A DNA stretch of 64,000 bases from Candidatus Kaiserbacteria bacterium (GTDB taxonomy: Bacteria; Patescibacteriota; Minisyncoccia; Phycocordibacterales; JABMNX01). The notes beneath the pieces were generated by a model that did no database searches, was not told where the DNA came from, and saw only the letters and a list, made by a program, of their open reading frames with translations. The stretch is taken from contig JABMNX010000040.1 in assembly GCA_013204405.1 (NCBI GenBank), positions 1,046 to 65,045 of the forward strand, in the 5' to 3' direction. Shown piece after piece: positions 7,039-29,065 of the stretch; position 1 is the stretch's first letter, and each line of letters starts with the position of its first letter. The position numbers were made by a program, and so were the translations under genes.

Positions 7039-7124
7039 ATTGTTAAACTAAGGATACAACTGAATATATTACCCGCAAGGGTAGAAGTCTAACCCTTATT
7101 ATATTTATAAGGTATGGCTTAAAA

Positions 7125-7230
7125 CCTATACAGTGCAAAAAACTCCGTCTCGGAGTCGCTGTATAGGTCGTGTGGGGAAACTCATACGGGCAGGAGCAAT
7201 CTTGTCGCAACGGGACGGAGCTTTTTGTAT
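7125..7230 (+). promoter_or_regulatory. structured leader upstream of a small membrane-protein gene, with mutually exclusive pairings
   Basis: Hairpin CCTATACAG...CTGTATAGG (7125-7167) encloses CTCCG-tct-CGGAG (7143-7155). CTCCGTC (7143-7149) can alternatively pair with GACGGAG (7214-7220), which is followed by CTTTTT. Confidence 0.25.
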
Positions 7231-22514: not shown

Positions 22515-23453
22515 ATGAAAACAACCCCCAAAGATTTCTTTTTCTCAGTAGGAGCATTCGCTGCACTCTACATAAGTGCTGTGAGTTTACTAACACTACT
22601 CTTTCAGTACATAGACATTCTTTTCAAGGATGCACTCGATACATTTTATGACCCATACTCTGGAGCAATTCGTTTCTCAATAGCATCATTAATTATTATT
22701 TTCCCGCTGTACGTTTACTTAACTCGTCTTATTAATCAGGACATACGGATGAATCCTGAGAAGAAAGAAGTTGGTGTACGAAAGTGGCTTATTTACCTTA
22801 CGTTATTTGTTGCAGGGGCTACTATTATTATTGACCTTATTGTACTTATTAATACATTTCTTGGTGGAGAAGAACTAACTTCTGGATTTATCTTGAAAGT
22901 CATTTCTGTCCTAGTAGTCATTGGAGGTGTCTTCCTGTATTACTTATATGATTTACGTGGTAAATGGGAAACCTCAAAAAGTCTTTCTCAAACAATTGGT
23001 GGAATAGTTTCTATTCTGATTCTTTCAGCTATTGTTGGCGGGTTCTTCATTATCGGTTCCCCTCAAACGCAACGATTAATTCGATTTGACCAAGATAAGA
23101 TTAATGACCTTTCAAGTATTCAATGGCAGATTGTAAATTTCTACCAACAGAAAGAAAGATTCCCAAAATCTCTTGATGAGCTAGAGGATCCTCTTGTTGG
23201 ATTTATTGTGCCAAAAGATTCTCAGACAGGTAATGATTACATATATAACTTAGGTGAAGGTACATTGTTTGAACTTTGTGCTAACTTCAACAAGGAAAGT
23301 AGGGGATACGCTATGGGTGAGTCTCGTATTGTTAAACCTATAAACTCAGAATATGGGTATGGACTTGAGAATGAAAATTGGACTCATGGGGAAGGTGAGG
23401 CGTGTTTTGAGAGAACAATTGACCCCGATAAGTTTCCTCCATTGAAACGATAA
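22515..23453 (+). CDS. hypothetical integral membrane protein (312 aa)
   Basis: Five or six N-terminal TM helices and a soluble C-terminal domain. Confidence 0.5.
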   Translation: MKTTPKDFFFSVGAFAALYISAVSLLTLLFQYIDILFKDALDTFYDPYSGAIRFSIASLIIIFPLYVYLTRLINQDIRMNPEKKEVGVRKWLIYLTLFVAGATIIIDLIVLINTFLGGEELTSGFILKVISVLVVIGGVFLYYLYDLRGKWETSKSLSQTIGGIVSILILSAIVGGFFIIGSPQTQRLIRFDQDKINDLSSIQWQIVNFYQQKERFPKSLDELEDPLVGFIVPKDSQTGNDYIYNLGEGTLFELCANFNKESRGYAMGESRIVKPINSEYGYGLENENWTHGEGEACFERTIDPDKFPPLKR

Positions 23454-23495
23454 TAAAAACTCTGTAGTGCAAGAAGGTAGTAACACTGAACGTAT

Positions 23496-26400
23496 ATGGC
23501 ATCGTATAATCACGAAGAGATAGAAAAAAAATGGCAGAAAAAATGGAAAGAGTCTGGAATTTATGACACGGAGAATCGAGACACTACTAAGGGCAAAGAG
23601 TATGTTTTAGTAGAGTGGCCGTATCCATCAGGCAACCTCCATATTGGTCACTGGTTTGCTTTTGCTGTTGTTGATATATATGTACGAGCAAGACGGATGC
23701 ATGGAAAGCAGGTATTTTTCCCTATGGGGTTTGATGCGTTCGGTCTTCCTGCTGAGAATGCTGCAATAAAAAATAATTTAAATCCAAAAGAGTGGACCGA
23801 TAAAAATATCGCATACATGAAAGGGCAGTTAGAAAGTATGGGGAATGCGTTTTCTTGGGACAAGACAACTAGCTCAACTGATCCTGAATACTATAAGTGG
23901 ACCCAGTGGATGTTCACTAAGTTTTTTGAAAATGATATCGCATACCGAGGTGAAGGAATTGTAAACTGGTGCTCGAGCTGTAACACAGTACTTGCAAATG
24001 AACAGGTACTTCCCGAGGGAGACTGTGAGCGGTGTGGTAATCAGGTTGAAAAGAAAAAGATGGATGAGTGGAAGATGCGTATTACAAAATATGCAGATAG
24101 ACTCATTGATGATTTAGATTCACTCGATTGGCCTGAGTCAATAAAAGAGTCGCAGCGTAATTGGATAGGGCGAAGTGAAGGGGCAGAGATTGATTTTCCG
24201 CTTTCGCTATCTTTATATGGAGGTGAAGTTGTGTTTGCAACAAACAATCATGGGAAGCTCGAGCGAATGCAGAAACTTTTTGATGCTGCAGGGTTTTCAA
24301 TAAAATTAAAGACACCACTTGAAATTGGTGTTAAAGATTTTAATGTAGAAGAAGATAGACCGACACTTGAAGAAAATGCTGAAAAGAAGGCTCGTGCTCT
24401 TGCTGAAAAAACAGACCTTCCTGTACTGGCCGATGACAGCGGGTTCTTTATTGATGGAGAAGAGATTGACCCAGTAACAGTAAAAAGAAACGCACTTGCT
24501 GGACAGTCTGAAGAAGGTATGACTATCGAAGAGGTAGGAAATTTAATGATTACATACTATCAAAATGTCGCTAAAGCTCGAGGAGGGTCTGTTGATGCTG
24601 AATGGCATAATGCTTTTTGTCTAATTACATCAAAAAAAATAGTGTCACACACACAAACCACTCGTCCTGTTACACTTACAGACGAACCAAAAGGTGTAAT
24701 GAATCCATACCTACCACTTAGGTCTCTGTACATATCAAAAGTGACTGGGAAACACGTGCTTTTACAAAGTGATGAAGAGGAACTCGAAGAATTAAATCCA
24801 ATTATTAAAGGAATACAAAATTTATTTACACCATCGATCAAAGTGTTCACCACGCGTCCAGACACACTTTATGGAGCTACATACATGGTACTTGCTCCAG
24901 AACATCCGCTTGTAGAGAAATTTAAGGGTGTGGTATCTAATTGGGACGAAATAGAAGCGTATCAAAAAGAAACTGCAACAAAAGACGACATAGTTCGGAC
25001 GACAGAAAATAAAGAAAAGACCGGAGTCAAACTTGAGGGAGTCCTTGCTATTAACCCAGCAAACCAAGAAGAAATTCCAGTTTTTATAGCAGACTACGTA
25101 TTATCTGGATATGGTACAGGTGCAATCATGGCAGTTCCAGCGCATGATGAGCGAGATTTTGCTTTCGCGAAGAAATTTAAACTTGCTACTAAAGAGGTTG
25201 TTTCAAACAAGCTCACAGACGAAAATATTTTTACTGGAGAGGGTACTCTTATAAACTCTGGAGAATTTGATGGACTTACAAGCGAGGAAGCAAAAGGAAA
25301 AATAACAAAAAAAGTTGGGGGAGAAATGAAATCAACGTATAGGCTTCGCGACTGGTCTGTTGGCCGTCAGCGATATTGGGGAGTTCCTATTCCTATTGTG
25401 TATGACAAGGAAGGAAAGGCTCACCCTGTTCCAGAAAAACATCTTCCATGGCTTTTACCAGAAGATGTTGACTTTAGGCCTACAGGAGAGCCACCATTAG
25501 CTAAAAGTAAAGAGCTTCTTGAACGAACAGAAAAGATATTTGGAGATGGCTGGACCCCAGAGGTTGAGACCATGGACACATTTGTTGATTCTTCATGGTA
25601 TTTTCTTCGCTATATAGATAATGAAAACGGCACAGAGTTTTCTTCAATGGAGAAGCAAAAAGAGTGGATGCCGATAGATATTTACTTCGGCGGTGCTGAG
25701 CATACAACAATGCATCTTCTTTATTCTCGTTTCTGGCAAAAGGTTCTTTTTGATTTAGGGCTTGTAACAGAGAGTGAGCCGTATAAGAGGCGAATTAATC
25801 GTGGACTCGTTCTCGGACCTGACGGCAACAAGATGAGTAAGTCAAAAGGAAACGTTATTGATCCTGATGAACAAGTGAAACGTCTCGGGTCTGATGCTGT
25901 AAAGATGTATTTAGCATTTATGGGACCGTACGGAGAAACAACTAACTACCCGTGGGACCTCGGTGGCATTGTTGGAATTCGTCGTTTCCTAGAACGAGTA
26001 GATAAGATGATTGATAAAGAAAATATAATGGATTCCGAAGACGTACATCTTGAGAGGCATTTACATCAGACAATTAAGAAAGTGGGAGGAGACATTGAGT
26101 TATATAAATTTAATACAGCAATATCTCAACTCATGATTTTTCTTAATCAAATGCAGACTCTTAAGGTAAGTAAAAATACACTCGAAATATTCCTTAGACT
26201 TCTTGCTCCATTTGCTCCACATCTCACAGAAGAACTCTGGGAGAGGCTGGGAAATATGACCTCAATCCACCTAGAAGAATGGCCCGAATTTGATGAATCA
26301 AAGCTTGTCTCTGACACAGTATCCATTGCTGTGCAGATACATGGGAAGGTGAGGGGGTTAGTAGAAAGTCCTTCTGGGTCAAGCGAAGACGAGGTTCTTG

Positions 26401-26498
26401 CTTTGGTTCGAAAGGATGAGGGTCTTTCTAAGTGGATAGAGGGGGAGCCAAAGAGGGTGATATATGTTGAGAATAAGCTTATTAATCTAGTGTTTTAA
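23496..26498 (+). CDS. leuS: leucyl-tRNA synthetase carrying a ~210-aa insertion with a Ham1/RdgB (ITPase)-like domain
   Basis: HIGH motif PSGNLHIGH. ZN-1 knuckle CSSC...CERC. NWIGRSEGAEIDF. T-rich VFTTRPDTLYGATYMVLAPEH. Editing motif GTGAIMAVPAHDERD. KMSKS motif NKMSKSKGN. Between GAEIDFPL and VFTTRPDTL lie residues ~237-447 (nt ~24204-24837). In that insert, EVVFATNNHGK, EEDRPTLEENAEKKAR, LPVLADDSG and EWHNAFCLI align to RdgB/Ham1 motifs. Confidence 0.9.
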   Translation: MASYNHEEIEKKWQKKWKESGIYDTENRDTTKGKEYVLVEWPYPSGNLHIGHWFAFAVVDIYVRARRMHGKQVFFPMGFDAFGLPAENAAIKNNLNPKEWTDKNIAYMKGQLESMGNAFSWDKTTSSTDPEYYKWTQWMFTKFFENDIAYRGEGIVNWCSSCNTVLANEQVLPEGDCERCGNQVEKKKMDEWKMRITKYADRLIDDLDSLDWPESIKESQRNWIGRSEGAEIDFPLSLSLYGGEVVFATNNHGKLERMQKLFDAAGFSIKLKTPLEIGVKDFNVEEDRPTLEENAEKKARALAEKTDLPVLADDSGFFIDGEEIDPVTVKRNALAGQSEEGMTIEEVGNLMITYYQNVAKARGGSVDAEWHNAFCLITSKKIVSHTQTTRPVTLTDEPKGVMNPYLPLRSLYISKVTGKHVLLQSDEEELEELNPIIKGIQNLFTPSIKVFTTRPDTLYGATYMVLAPEHPLVEKFKGVVSNWDEIEAYQKETATKDDIVRTTENKEKTGVKLEGVLAINPANQEEIPVFIADYVLSGYGTGAIMAVPAHDERDFAFAKKFKLATKEVVSNKLTDENIFTGEGTLINSGEFDGLTSEEAKGKITKKVGGEMKSTYRLRDWSVGRQRYWGVPIPIVYDKEGKAHPVPEKHLPWLLPEDVDFRPTGEPPLAKSKELLERTEKIFGDGWTPEVETMDTFVDSSWYFLRYIDNENGTEFSSMEKQKEWMPIDIYFGGAEHTTMHLLYSRFWQKVLFDLGLVTESEPYKRRINRGLVLGPDGNKMSKSKGNVIDPDEQVKRLGSDAVKMYLAFMGPYGETTNYPWDLGGIVGIRRFLERVDKMIDKENIMDSEDVHLERHLHQTIKKVGGDIELYKFNTAISQLMIFLNQMQTLKVSKNTLEIFLRLLAPFAPHLTEELWERLGNMTSIHLEEWPEFDESKLVSDTVSIAVQIHGKVRGLVESPSGSSEDEVLALVRKDEGLSKWIEGEPKRVIYVENKLINLVF

Positions 26499-26576
26499 AG
26501 AGGTATTATGGGGGGCTTGACGAAACACTAGACAAATGATAAAAATTAGAGTACACTATCTGTTAATAATCAATAT

Positions 26577-27605
26577 ATGGCTAAAATAACCTTTAAACCA
26601 AAACAGGTCTCGAAGACTCTACTTTCAGTATTACCTCCACGAGCTCAGGAGGTTCTTACTAGTCGGTATGGTCTCGGGAAGACAACCACTAAAATGACCC
26701 TAGAATCTATTGGTGAAAGGTATGGTATTACTCGGGAACGAGTACGTCAGATTGAAAACCATGCTGTTTTGAGTATTCGAAAGTCGGATACATTTGAGAA
26801 GACTACTCCTGTTTTTGATGAGTTGGAGCAATATATTAATTCTCTTGGAGGTGTAGTGTCAGAAGAGGAACTTCTTTCAAGTATCTCAAAAGACAAGGGA
26901 ACTCAGAACCATATTCATTTCCTTTTAGTTCTTGGTAACTCATTTACACACAAAAAAGAAGACAGTGAATTTACACACCGGTGGTATGTTGACGAAGAAT
27001 TTGCAGACCAAATTCATGTTGCACTCCGTAAACTTTACTCAAACTTGTCTGATGACGAGTTAATTACTGAGTCAACATTACTCGATTCGTTTTTAAATGA
27101 GGTGAAGCATCTTAACGAAGAATACTTACAAGAAGAAATCCTTCGAAGATGGTTATCTCTTTCAAAAACAATAGCAAAAAATCCTCTTGGAGAATGGGGA
27201 CAAGCATCATCTTCAAACGTTAAAGCTAAGGGAATGCGAGACTTTGCATATTTAGCAATTAAACGACATGGTTCCCCTATGCACTTTACTGAAGTGGCCA
27301 ACGCAATTACTGACCTATTTAATAAAAAGGCACACGTTGCCACATGTCACAATGAACTCATCAAAGATAAACGCTTTGTGTTGGTTGGACGAGGTCTCTA
27401 TGCTCTTGCAGAGTGGGGGTACTCGAGTGGTGTGGTAAAGGAAGTACTTCGAGCAATTCTTAGCAAAGAAGGACCGTTAACTCGAGAGGAGTTAATAGAC
27501 AGAATTCGAAAAGAACGGTATGTCAAAGACAATACTATCTCAGTAAACCTTCAAGACACGTCTGTATTTAAAAAAGATAAAAACGGTAAATACATATTAG
27601 CGTAA
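26577..27605 (+). CDS. sigma-70 region-4 (HTH) domain protein with a winged-helix-like C-terminal domain
   Basis: LPPRAQEVLTSRYGL...TLESIGERYGITRERVRQIENHAV matches the sigma-70 r4 signature. No region 2 or region 3. Confidence 0.55.
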   Translation: MAKITFKPKQVSKTLLSVLPPRAQEVLTSRYGLGKTTTKMTLESIGERYGITRERVRQIENHAVLSIRKSDTFEKTTPVFDELEQYINSLGGVVSEEELLSSISKDKGTQNHIHFLLVLGNSFTHKKEDSEFTHRWYVDEEFADQIHVALRKLYSNLSDDELITESTLLDSFLNEVKHLNEEYLQEEILRRWLSLSKTIAKNPLGEWGQASSSNVKAKGMRDFAYLAIKRHGSPMHFTEVANAITDLFNKKAHVATCHNELIKDKRFVLVGRGLYALAEWGYSSGVVKEVLRAILSKEGPLTREELIDRIRKERYVKDNTISVNLQDTSVFKKDKNGKYILA

Positions 27606-27679
27606 CCAGACTAGAGAGTTCACAATATGTTTGTAAAAGGGCTGTTACATACAGCTCTTTTGCGTTATGATTTACTGTA

Positions 27680-29065
27680 ATGGCATTTAAACCGTTGGAA
27701 ATTTTTGATGATCTAGAATTACAGACTCATTCCGTAGTATTACTGCTTGTAATTTTTGGGAGTCTTTTGTGGTATGCATATTCGTTATTTTCTCCATTGT
27801 TTAGTCCAGCATTACGAATAATTTTTTTTCTTGCACCAATATGGGTTCCACTCGTACTGGGAATTATGTCTTGGAGGCTGTGGCTTGAATTTATTCGTGC
27901 AAAATTTATAAGCAAACAAGAATACGTTCTCCTTGATATACGACTACCACGCGAAATCTCACGTTCCCCGTTGGCTATGGAGACACTGCTTACAAACTTT
28001 CATATTGGAATAGGAGAGACAACATTCATTGACCGATATATTCTAGGGAAAGTACGTCCATGGCACTCACTTGAAATGGTTTCATTGGGAGGTGAGATAC
28101 ATTTTTATATTTGGACACGAAAATTTCTTCAAAAAGTAATTGAGACACAGATTTATGGGCAATACCCAGCCGTTGAAATCTATGAAGCTGAAGATTACGC
28201 TAAAAAACTTCATTACACACCAGAGCAGTATGGGGTATGGGCATGTGATTTTAAATTAACTGGAAAAGACGCATATCCAATTAAGACGTATGTTGATTAC
28301 GGTCTTGATAAAGATCCTAAAGAAGAATTTAAAATTGATCCAATGGCGGGATTCTTTGAATTTCTCGGTCAGATTGGTCCTGATGAACAGATTTGGTTTC
28401 AGATTTTGATTCGGGTCAATAAGGGCGACCTTGAGGAGGATAGAAAATACATAAGTGCAAAAGATTTAAGAAAAGAGAGAGAAGAAGAGAAAAAGGATGG
28501 TTGGATTTTTTTTGGAGAAACAAGAAGTTGGAAAGAGGAAGCTAAAAAGGAGATCAAGAAAATTATAGATGACGCAACTCCCAAATACACTGATGATACA
28601 GGAAAGGAACGCCCAGGATTCCCTAATATGACACCAGGAGACACAGATAAGATTAAAGCACTTGAACGGAGTGTGTCAAAACTTGGGTTTGACGTTGGGA
28701 TACGTGGAATTTATATAGCAAAGTCAGACAAGTTTAACCCAACAAATATTGTTGCACTTACTGCGTCTCTTAAACAGCTTAACTCCTCAAACCTCAATGG
28801 ATTTTCTCCAACAAGGTGGTTTATTGATTTTAGTTATCCATGGCAAGATTTTCGAGGGAAAAAGAAAGAAGCTTATCGAAGAGAGGTTATTGATGCGTAC
28901 CGACGTCGTTCATGGTTCCATGCACCATACAAGACTCCTTCGTTTGTACTTAATACAGAAGAACTTGCAACAATATTTCATTTCCCTGGTTCAGTGGTAC
29001 AAGCTCCAACGCTTGGACGTGTTCAGTCTACCAAGGGAGATGCTCCATCTAATTTACCAATGTAA
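27680..29065 (+). CDS. hypothetical membrane protein (461 aa)
   Basis: Two N-terminal TM helices and a large soluble domain rich in K and E. Confidence 0.45.
   Translation: MAFKPLEIFDDLELQTHSVVLLLVIFGSLLWYAYSLFSPLFSPALRIIFFLAPIWVPLVLGIMSWRLWLEFIRAKFISKQEYVLLDIRLPREISRSPLAMETLLTNFHIGIGETTFIDRYILGKVRPWHSLEMVSLGGEIHFYIWTRKFLQKVIETQIYGQYPAVEIYEAEDYAKKLHYTPEQYGVWACDFKLTGKDAYPIKTYVDYGLDKDPKEEFKIDPMAGFFEFLGQIGPDEQIWFQILIRVNKGDLEEDRKYISAKDLRKEREEEKKDGWIFFGETRSWKEEAKKEIKKIIDDATPKYTDDTGKERPGFPNMTPGDTDKIKALERSVSKLGFDVGIRGIYIAKSDKFNPTNIVALTASLKQLNSSNLNGFSPTRWFIDFSYPWQDFRGKKKEAYRREVIDAYRRRSWFHAPYKTPSFVLNTEELATIFHFPGSVVQAPTLGRVQSTKGDAPSNLPM

Follow-up and report, generated by a model that had tools for sequence, protein, structure and literature searches.

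The 64,000-nucleotide stretch of DNA considered in this work (the window) comes from contig JABMNX010000040.1 of a Candidatus Kaiserbacteria bacterium, and its leuS gene encodes a leucyl-tRNA synthetase (LeuRS) of 1000 amino acids (aa) in which a domain resembling the Ham1/RdgB/ITPA nucleotide pyrophosphatases is nested, at the start of the editing domain known as connective polypeptide 1 (CP1). A preliminary description of the sequence had placed the inserted domain at 24204-24837; the start of this interval stands, while its end falls one base past the last codon, which finishes at 24836. The identical protein is deposited at NCBI as NQV93364.1 under the label 'leucine--tRNA ligase [Candidatus Kaiserbacteria bacterium]', a public annotation that conceals the nested domain. 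The features of the gene are given below; counts of conservation, here and throughout, refer to 48 distinct LeuRS-embedded copies of the domain and have as denominators the copies with sequence at the position in question, and "subfamily" denotes the insert together with its embedded and free relatives.

23496-26498, + strand: leuS, bacterial-type LeuRS of 1000 aa with the nested domain (TIGR00396, Pfam)
23496-24203, + strand: N-terminal half of the Rossmann catalytic core, ZN-1 knuckle and first CP1 linker strand, aa 1-236 (gapless alignment to Thermus thermophilus LeuRS 1-236)
23640-23651, + strand: HIGH motif, aa 49-52 (motif position)
24204-24836, + strand: nested Ham1/ITPase-fold domain, aa 237-447; envelope of the subfamily hidden Markov model (HMM), aa 241-448 (PF01725, AlphaFold2, Foldseek, hhalign)
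24237-24257, + strand: ATNNHGK motif with N251 and K254 (invariant in canonical Ham1 and in the subfamily)
24345-24392, + strand: VEEDRPTLEENAEKKA with E286, N294 and K298 (E286 and K298 each in 47/47 embedded copies)
24426-24443, + strand: LADDSG with D314 (47/47 embedded copies)
24663-24752, + strand: putatively remodelled C-lobe pocket, RPVTLTD ... YLPLRSLYISKVTGK, with R390, P407, R409, Y412 and K419 (hhalign, conservation)
24837-25331, + strand: CP1 editing domain proper, aa 448-~612 (PF13603, 204 bits)
24843-24869, + strand: T-rich VFTTRPDTL, aa 450-458 (motif position)
25113-25157, + strand: editing motif GTGAIMAVPAHDERD, including AHDERD, aa 540-554 (motif position)
25830-25844, + strand: KMSKS loop, aa 779-783 (motif position; aligns to the T. 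thermophilus KMSKS region)

All the landmarks of a LeuRS that had been listed for this protein were located, namely the HIGH motif, the Zn knuckle (CSSC/CERC, aa 159-180), NWIGRSEGAEIDFPL (aa 222-236), VFTTRPDTL, GTGAIMAVPAHDERD and KMSKS. The TIGR00396 model (leuS_bact) matched the 1000-aa protein with 908.7 bits (cut-off 548.4) in two stretches that flank the insert, and Pfam recognized tRNA-synt_1, tRNA-synt_1_2 and Anticodon_1. The alignment with the T. thermophilus enzyme (1H3N) reached 680 bits and paired aa 1-236 with T. thermophilus 1-236 and aa 448-776 with T. thermophilus 243-581. Judged in this way, the host is an intact bacterial-type LeuRS, for which leucylation and editing activities are predicted. 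It shares with the bacterial enzymes of known structure (1H3N and E. coli 4AQ7) the same core, ZN-1, the CP1 editing motifs, KMSKS and the anticodon-binding and C-terminal domains. It differs from 1H3N, which has a six-residue loop (T. thermophilus 237-242) and a leucine-specific domain, in carrying a 211-aa domain at the first place and no leucine-specific domain at the second. The latter (T. thermophilus ~582-637) is absent just before KMSKS, where aa 776-780 (25821-25835) span T. thermophilus 581-638, that is, with ~57 aa fewer.

Position, integrity and fold of the insert

The flanks of the insert align to T. thermophilus 1-236 and 243-581, and hence 211 residues (aa 237-447) replace the six found in the Thermus enzyme (EGKEVR), in agreement with the ~210 extra aa noticed at the outset just before CP1. 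The insert lies at the turn that leads from the first CP1 linker strand into the T-rich one; LeuRS fragments from the Candidate Phyla Radiation (CPR) that are free of the insert have 5-12 residues there, such as 'GAEIDFKLSTDDTVTVFTTRADT' in fragment P0056. The element termed 'CP1 hairpin' in the literature was considered as the insertion site and discarded, since it bears Zn and lies upstream of CP1 (PMC4138327).

Contigs from the sequencing runs SRR28106031 and SRR28106037 both encode the identical 1000-aa protein. At the insert, no flanking direct repeats and no break in composition were found: GC is uniform and the reading frame is continuous. An intein has Cys or Ser at the splice start and His-Asn at its end, and the junctions (...DFPL/SLSLYGG... 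and ...NLFTPS/IKVFTT...) display neither the Cys/Ser start nor the His-Asn end. The possibility of an intein or of a recent mobile-element insertion was rejected for lack of splice residues, flanking repeats or a composition break. No second open reading frame (ORF) of the Ham1-like or NUDIX-insert-like type was found elsewhere in the 64-kb window.

A first indication of the nature of the insert came from Pfam, in which PF01725 matched aa 245-321 (E = 8e-15) with 55.6 bits for the whole protein and 59 bits for the insert alone, above the gathering threshold of 22.5, so that the contrary outcome raised beforehand, the absence of a Ham1 match, was not borne out. This match is limited to positions 1-78 of the 186 in the profile, and in a phmmer comparison with PDB sequences the RdgB/Ham1 chains likewise matched the N-terminal ~80 residues of the insert; in its alignment with 1k7k, phmmer recovered the peptide matches to RdgB that had been quoted earlier. 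Profile-to-profile comparison by hhalign reached much further, aligning the subfamily with canonical Ham1 at 99.8% probability over 174 columns. The AlphaFold2 model of the insert had a mean pLDDT (predicted local distance difference test) of 93.5 and a pTM (predicted template modelling score) of 0.86, and its top Foldseek matches were all RdgB/Ham1/ITPA structures, with TM scores of 0.61-0.76 over ~202-217 columns and E values from 2e-12 to 2e-7. Structures such as 1k7k, 4bnq, 2q16 and 2j4e are among them, and the proteins matched are RdgB from E. coli, Ham1 from S. aureus, human ITPA and NTPases from archaea; E. coli RdgB (1k7k) was matched at E = 2e-12 with ~210 aligned columns. The similarity to Ham1/RdgB first proposed for aa ~241-380 is therefore upheld by PF01725, hhalign and Foldseek, while the proposed extent is too short, given that the whole 211 aa forms the fold. 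The Maf nucleotide pyrophosphatases, which belong to the same ITPase-like superfamily, are only distantly similar (Foldseek TM 0.34-0.50, much weaker than Ham1), and Maf gave no match in the Pfam search of the LeuRS.

When the linker, the insert and CP1 were modelled together (aa 196-640), AlphaFold2 returned a pLDDT of 89.2 and a pTM of 0.78, and the CP1 part superposed on solved structures of isolated LeuRS CP1 with TM scores of 0.75-0.83 and a root-mean-square deviation of 1.8-2.6 A. The confidence of the model and this superposition imply that both folds coexist. According to the models, the insert adopts the alpha/beta ITPase fold in full, with both lobes, and protrudes from the first beta-hairpin of CP1.

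Conserved residues of the insert and its relatives

Canonical Ham1 proteins and the subfamily have in common N251, K254, E286, N294, K298, D314, P326 and R331 (LeuRS numbering). Among the embedded copies, N251 and K254 are found in 46/46 each, and E286, K298 and D314 in 47/47 each. In Ham1 enzymes the N..K motif, here N251 and K254, is the one that binds the triphosphate, and the second Lys, here K298, likewise belongs to the catalytic and metal- or phosphate-binding residues. By alignment, E286 and D314 are probably the equivalents of Glu44 and Asp72 of human ITPA, an assignment that places DDS of the insert opposite a stretch of the human protein that we take to be EDT. Glu44 and Asp72 are crucial in human ITPA (PMC9016069), and the conserved Asp of HAM1 makes the nucleophilic attack (bioRxiv 10.1101/2024.12.20.629578).

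The second lobe offers a different picture. In ITPases, SHR is the signature of the family and belongs to the specificity pocket, with an essential Arg178, and Phe149 packs on C2 of the base and keeps GTP out (PMC5075207); SHR and Phe149 are the elements of ITP specificity, and Phe149 and Arg178 also count as crucial in ITPA (PMC9016069, PMC5075207). SHR is absent from the insert, in which the region reads SDEEELEE and is left unaligned by hhalign; FGYDP is also absent, its place being taken by YLPLRSLY, and hhalign sets (F/L)P(I/L)R(S)LY opposite FGYDP. The position of the canonical FGYDP Asp is occupied in the subfamily by Arg (R409, 40/46 embedded copies). On the other hand, the subfamily has invariant or near-invariant residues of its own, R257, R390, P407, R409, Y412 and K419, which for the C-lobe amounts to 45/47 copies for R390, 46/46 for P407 and 42/46 for both Y412 and K419. 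The free members display the same pattern of conservation as the embedded copies. The FGYDP and SHR motifs had been described as degenerate: the canonical motifs are indeed missing, but decay is not what is observed, since the strong conservation of the C-lobe residues points to a different conserved pocket in their place.

The scores of the insert against the equivalog models of RdgB/ITPase fell below the cut-offs, with 47-51 bits against TIGR00042 (cut-off 145) and 53-57 bits against NF011397 (cut-off 234). With these scores, and with SHR and FGYDP missing, identification of the insert as a canonical XTP/dITP diphosphatase was rejected. The low scores are explained by membership in a different, conserved subfamily. 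Free relatives of ~200-215 aa match the insert from end to end with 39-54% identity, and an HMM of the subfamily gave its members 140-300 bits over the full length of the model, compared to 40-69 bits for canonical Ham1, restricted to the N-terminal ~80 positions. Thus, RdgB, Ham1 and ITPA (PF01725, TIGR00042; 1k7k, 2q16, 2j4e) resemble the insert in fold, in N-lobe residues and in their ~200-aa size, whereas SHR and FGYDP (Arg178, Phe149) are theirs, and the insert has a different conserved set and is nested in another enzyme. These comparisons indicate that the insert defines a distinct Ham1-like subfamily, with the predicted catalytic machinery kept and the specificity pocket replaced.

Distribution in Patescibacteria and DPANN archaea

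An index-free HMMER search of 1.84 billion representatives, of which the best 150 matches were considered, showed that at least 14 LeuRS clusters (30-60% identity) carry the domain between the same junctions. Among these 150, LeuRS is overwhelmingly the main host, with no other aminoacyl-tRNA synthetase (aaRS) and one host that is not an aaRS. A scan of GTDB species representatives gave 20 loci, 18 of them inside LeuRS frames of 1011-1558 aa, with record titles that name Saccharibacteria, Paceibacterota, Kaiserbacteria, Dojkabacteria and Patescibacteria, and a metagenome scan gave 24 loci (21/24 inside LeuRS). Both scans relied on peptide patterns from a narrower alignment of the window's own clade, and not on the 29-sequence alignment of the subfamily. 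Altogether, 48 distinct LeuRS sequences across Patescibacteria carry the domain at the CP1 site, so that the survey of CPR orthologs envisaged earlier finds the insert to recur, and the architecture is common in CPR/Patescibacteria and not unique to this genome. A word-indexed protein search listed no match longer than ~520 aa and did not return the 1000-aa LeuRS of the query itself; being unreliable for long proteins, its apparent absence of other fusions was not trusted. Two single representatives have the domain elsewhere in LeuRS, after CP1 and followed by HAD_2 in P0179, and near the C-terminus, after the anticodon-binding domain, in P0178.

The Ham1-like domain is not the only one nested in these synthetases. 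Related Patescibacterial LeuRSs of 1160-1344 aa often contain additional domains: one of the NUDIX type that follows AHDERD in CP1 (P0159, P0160, P0163 and P0200), serine hydrolase or alpha/beta-hydrolase (P0160, P0164, P0165, P0168 and P0188), an NTP_transf_5-like nucleotidyltransferase (P0162) and the HAD_2 of P0179. Additional nested domains were also seen in the LeuRS fragments P0056, P0105 and P0127, some with NUDIX and without the Ham1-like insert. A relative syntenic with the window (L003 4851-8319; GCA_037975565.1, JBBCBH010006136.1) has a leuS that encodes both Ham1-like and NUDIX inserts and is frameshifted into at least 5 ORFs, through either assembly indels or decay into a pseudogene.

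Free members of the subfamily in CPR genomes occur in other surroundings. P0038 (L004 6001-6606, GCA_041643075.1) lies in the spc operon of ribosomal proteins, between secY and adk, and is accompanied there by a 275-aa ORF without a Pfam match. Another adjoins, with a 9-bp gap, a gene for a CYTH protein (triphosphate tunnel metalloenzyme; L056 4219-5420), and a further one has a CYTH gene two genes downstream and an HD-domain gene upstream (L054 2576-4778). P0171 is a free two-domain protein that combines the Ham1-like domain with a serine hydrolase. The recurring partners are enzymes of nucleotides and phosphoanhydrides, with which a nucleotide-hydrolysing role would fit.

The closest free relatives of the insert in the window, at 53-57% identity, come from DPANN archaea, in metagenome-assembled genomes (MAGs) labelled Nanoarchaeota and Pacearchaeota, where the annotation of the protein reads 'non-canonical purine NTP pyrophosphatase [Nanoarchaeota archaeon]'; the Nanoarchaeota protein MEK6910980.1 is one free homologue. 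A neighbour-joining tree with bootstrap, whose weak backbone support restricts its use to the three points that follow, recovered the subfamily as monophyletic, with embedded and free forms interleaved and the DPANN copies nested among the embedded ones (the DPANN group has a bootstrap of 94 and the clade around it 81). All five free copies found in this clade, from two MAGs and three independent groundwater contigs, belong to one DPANN lineage, and each precedes an archaeal-type leuS by 25 bp, in the order aIF-1A, Ham1-like gene, archaeal leuS (L018 3569-7316; L022 3558-7364; L039, L041 and L042); the leuS products scored 965 and 832 bits against TIGR00395 (cut-off 648.5). Archaeal and bacterial LeuRS differ in the place at which CP1 is inserted (PMC4138327), and a hotspot of insertion common to both can therefore not account for the adjacency to an archaeal leuS. 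The nearest relatives of the DPANN proteins being bacterial LeuRS inserts, the sequences suggest a transfer between CPR bacteria and DPANN archaea.

Possible function and genomic surroundings

Three roles had been contemplated for the insert: to sanitise nucleotides, to sense them, or to be an inactive structural element. Of these, a sensor or an inert spacer is less well supported by the evidence than an active enzyme. The reading that we prefer, and to which we would give about an even chance, is that of an active Mg2+-dependent nucleotide pyrophosphohydrolase with a specificity other than ITP (inosine triphosphate), functionally associated with LeuRS. In such a mechanism the domain would keep the residues that Ham1 enzymes use for triphosphate, Mg2+ and water activation (N251, K254, E286, K298 and D314), and its base-specificity lobe would be rebuilt with R390, P407, R409, Y412 and K419 instead of FGYDP and SHR, for a substrate that would be neither ITP nor XTP (xanthosine triphosphate). 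It would act in cis with LeuRS and not merely ride on it, its most plausible job being the removal of nucleotide species that disturb the adenylate chemistry of the synthetase or arise from it. The first hairpin of CP1 would simply be a tolerated attachment point, at which aminoacylation and editing would be left untouched. The link with LeuRS is drawn from three observations: LeuRS as the dominant host, the two further sites in LeuRS, and the DPANN copies beside leuS. As a speculation, the substrate might be a polyphosphate arising from the synthetase, such as diadenosine tetraphosphate (Ap4A) or adenosine tetraphosphate (p4A), a wrongly activated adenylate or a toxin that imitates an adenylate; the extra basic residues of the pocket and the CYTH neighbours would be compatible with a ligand rich in polyphosphate.

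Several observations weigh against this proposal. A 1621-aa protein from a 271-kb ENA contig (P0192) is a DNA topoisomerase I with NUDIX at 286-402, a domain of the same Ham1-like subfamily at 440-646 and an intein with a LAGLIDADG endonuclease, and most of the free CPR copies, the more distant ones, are not beside leuS (secY-adk, CYTH, HD and other contexts); a tie to LeuRS is, therefore, not a necessity. Synteny is shared by the DPANN loci, which probably represent one evolutionary event, and the locus counts are a biased lower bound because the patterns were derived from a single clade. In at least one embedded copy (P0188) the insert persists although the catalytic motifs of its N-terminal part are gone, so a purely structural role is possible. 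Finally, canonical Ham1 enzymes are dimeric, and embedding in the monomeric LeuRS may affect dimerisation.

Some of these facts would be accommodated by an active house-cleaning pyrophosphatase unrelated to leucylation, which would have nested in a permissive loop of a large, essential and constitutive protein in streamlined CPR genomes, the CP1 of LeuRS being simply the most tolerant host. The topoisomerase I, with its Ham1-like domain and NUDIX, speaks for it, as do the unrelated NUDIX, HAD_2, Ser_hydrolase and NTP_transf_5 domains that these LeuRSs also harbour, the free CPR copies in varied contexts without leuS and, within the limits of a weak backbone, the interleaving of embedded and free forms in the tree. 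However, mere tolerance sits uneasily with the overwhelming preference for LeuRS, with no other aaRS and one non-aaRS host among the best 150 matches, and with the use of three different insertion sites in that enzyme. Moreover, permissiveness alone hardly explains the DPANN copies, which lie directly upstream of an archaeal-type leuS without a shared insertion site. We regard this explanation, the main rival, as possible, though rather doubtful. A sensor is improbable. Like KomB in the Kongming anti-phage system, it would bind but not hydrolyse a nucleotide, and would tune aminoacylation or editing allosterically through the mobile CP1. The notion draws on the presence of KomB among the Foldseek matches (8zsg_E and 9v0g_A), on the HAM1 domains documented as sensors (bioRxiv 10.1101/2024.12.20.629578), on the remodelled pocket and on the location of the domain on the swinging CP1 (for its mobility, PMC4138327). 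KomB, the dITP sensor of Kongming and the one documented non-catalytic HAM1, is likewise a case of a Ham1 fold co-opted into partnership with a second protein. However, sensor HAM1s invariably swap the catalytic Asp for His and keep the ITP pocket, and the LeuRS insert is the reverse, with Asp, Glu and Lys invariant and the ITP pocket gone. Nor is the context that of KomB: in the window there is no SIR2 partner, the neighbours are housekeeping genes and PADLOC gave no match to a defence system, and the free members stand alone or with other hydrolases, not with effectors.

The domain might also be an inert spacer that adds bulk to CP1, or a decaying remnant on its way to loss. This would suit P0188, devoid of N-terminal motifs, the very divergent members P0180 and P0200, and the NCBIfam RdgB equivalog scores far under their cut-offs. 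Nevertheless, the fold is predicted with great confidence, the catalytic and subfamily residues are invariant among copies with only 30-65% overall identity (as little as 30-40% in some), which argues for the constraint of a working site, and the low equivalog scores are accounted for by a separate subfamily, as the 140-300 bits of its own HMM, compared to 40-69 for canonical Ham1, make clear; we consider inertness very unlikely. That an assembly chimera or a gene-calling artefact joined a Ham1 gene to leuS has a negligible probability: the window does come from a MAG, and the relative L003 does have a frameshifted leuS, but the same protein emerged from two separate runs, its frame is continuous without a composition break or flanking repeats, and the junctions are shared by the 48 distinct LeuRS from many MAGs and metagenomes.

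Beyond the association of this pyrophosphohydrolase with LeuRS, a broader idea, in our opinion quite unlikely, is that of a nucleotide-clearing system associated with LeuRS and common to CPR and DPANN, which would include the NUDIX, HAD, serine-hydrolase and nucleotidyltransferase modules. Candidates for clearance would be dinucleoside or nucleoside polyphosphates from the synthetase (Ap4A, p4A), mis-activated adenylates, or natural toxins that mimic leucyl-adenylate. If true, such a system would represent a new cis-acting layer of quality control or self-protection of the synthetase.

Full-text literature searching found no description of a LeuRS, or of any aaRS, bearing a Ham1 domain, which agrees with what had been stated from the start. 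Both component families are known; the novelty lies in their nesting, in a Ham1 subfamily that stands apart and in the association with LeuRS. The aaRSs rank with the most thoroughly studied enzymes, and their accessory domains usually bind RNA or edit mischarged products, and a nested small-molecule hydrolase is a different design. The nearest parallel is an isoleucyl-tRNA synthetase with a GNAT domain (NF040702, considered by model name only), also a class Ia synthetase joined to an unrelated domain that modifies small molecules, of a different family. The nesting recurs over dozens of CPR lineages and forms part of a wider habit of hydrolase domains in LeuRS. Should the domain prove to be tied to the chemistry of LeuRS, this would suggest that ultra-small symbiotic cells face some nucleotide by-product or toxin which has to be cleared at the synthetase; as a mere hitch-hiker, it would illustrate enzyme-in-enzyme nesting as an unusual genome economy. 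In either case, a new Ham1 subfamily with conserved predicted catalytic machinery and a new specificity pocket would have to be reckoned with.

As regards the surroundings of leuS in the window, the region 22515-29065 contains, in this order, a gene for a DUF5671 membrane protein, leuS, a gene for a 342-aa protein with sigma-70 region 4 and HARE-HTH, and those for DUF8128, YceG and MnmA, an arrangement kept in locus L001. L003 repeats most of it (DUF5671, leuS, the sigma-70-like gene and YceG), with a 469-aa ORF, without a Pfam match on record, between the sigma-70-like gene and YceG. No tRNA, tmRNA or rRNA genes were found in the 64-kb window. Its sole Rfam match is a full-length LOOT RNA motif (RF03000) at 7086-7206 on the + strand, with 79.8 bits against a gathering threshold of 46.4, and the cumulative GC skew climbs monotonically over positions 1-64000.

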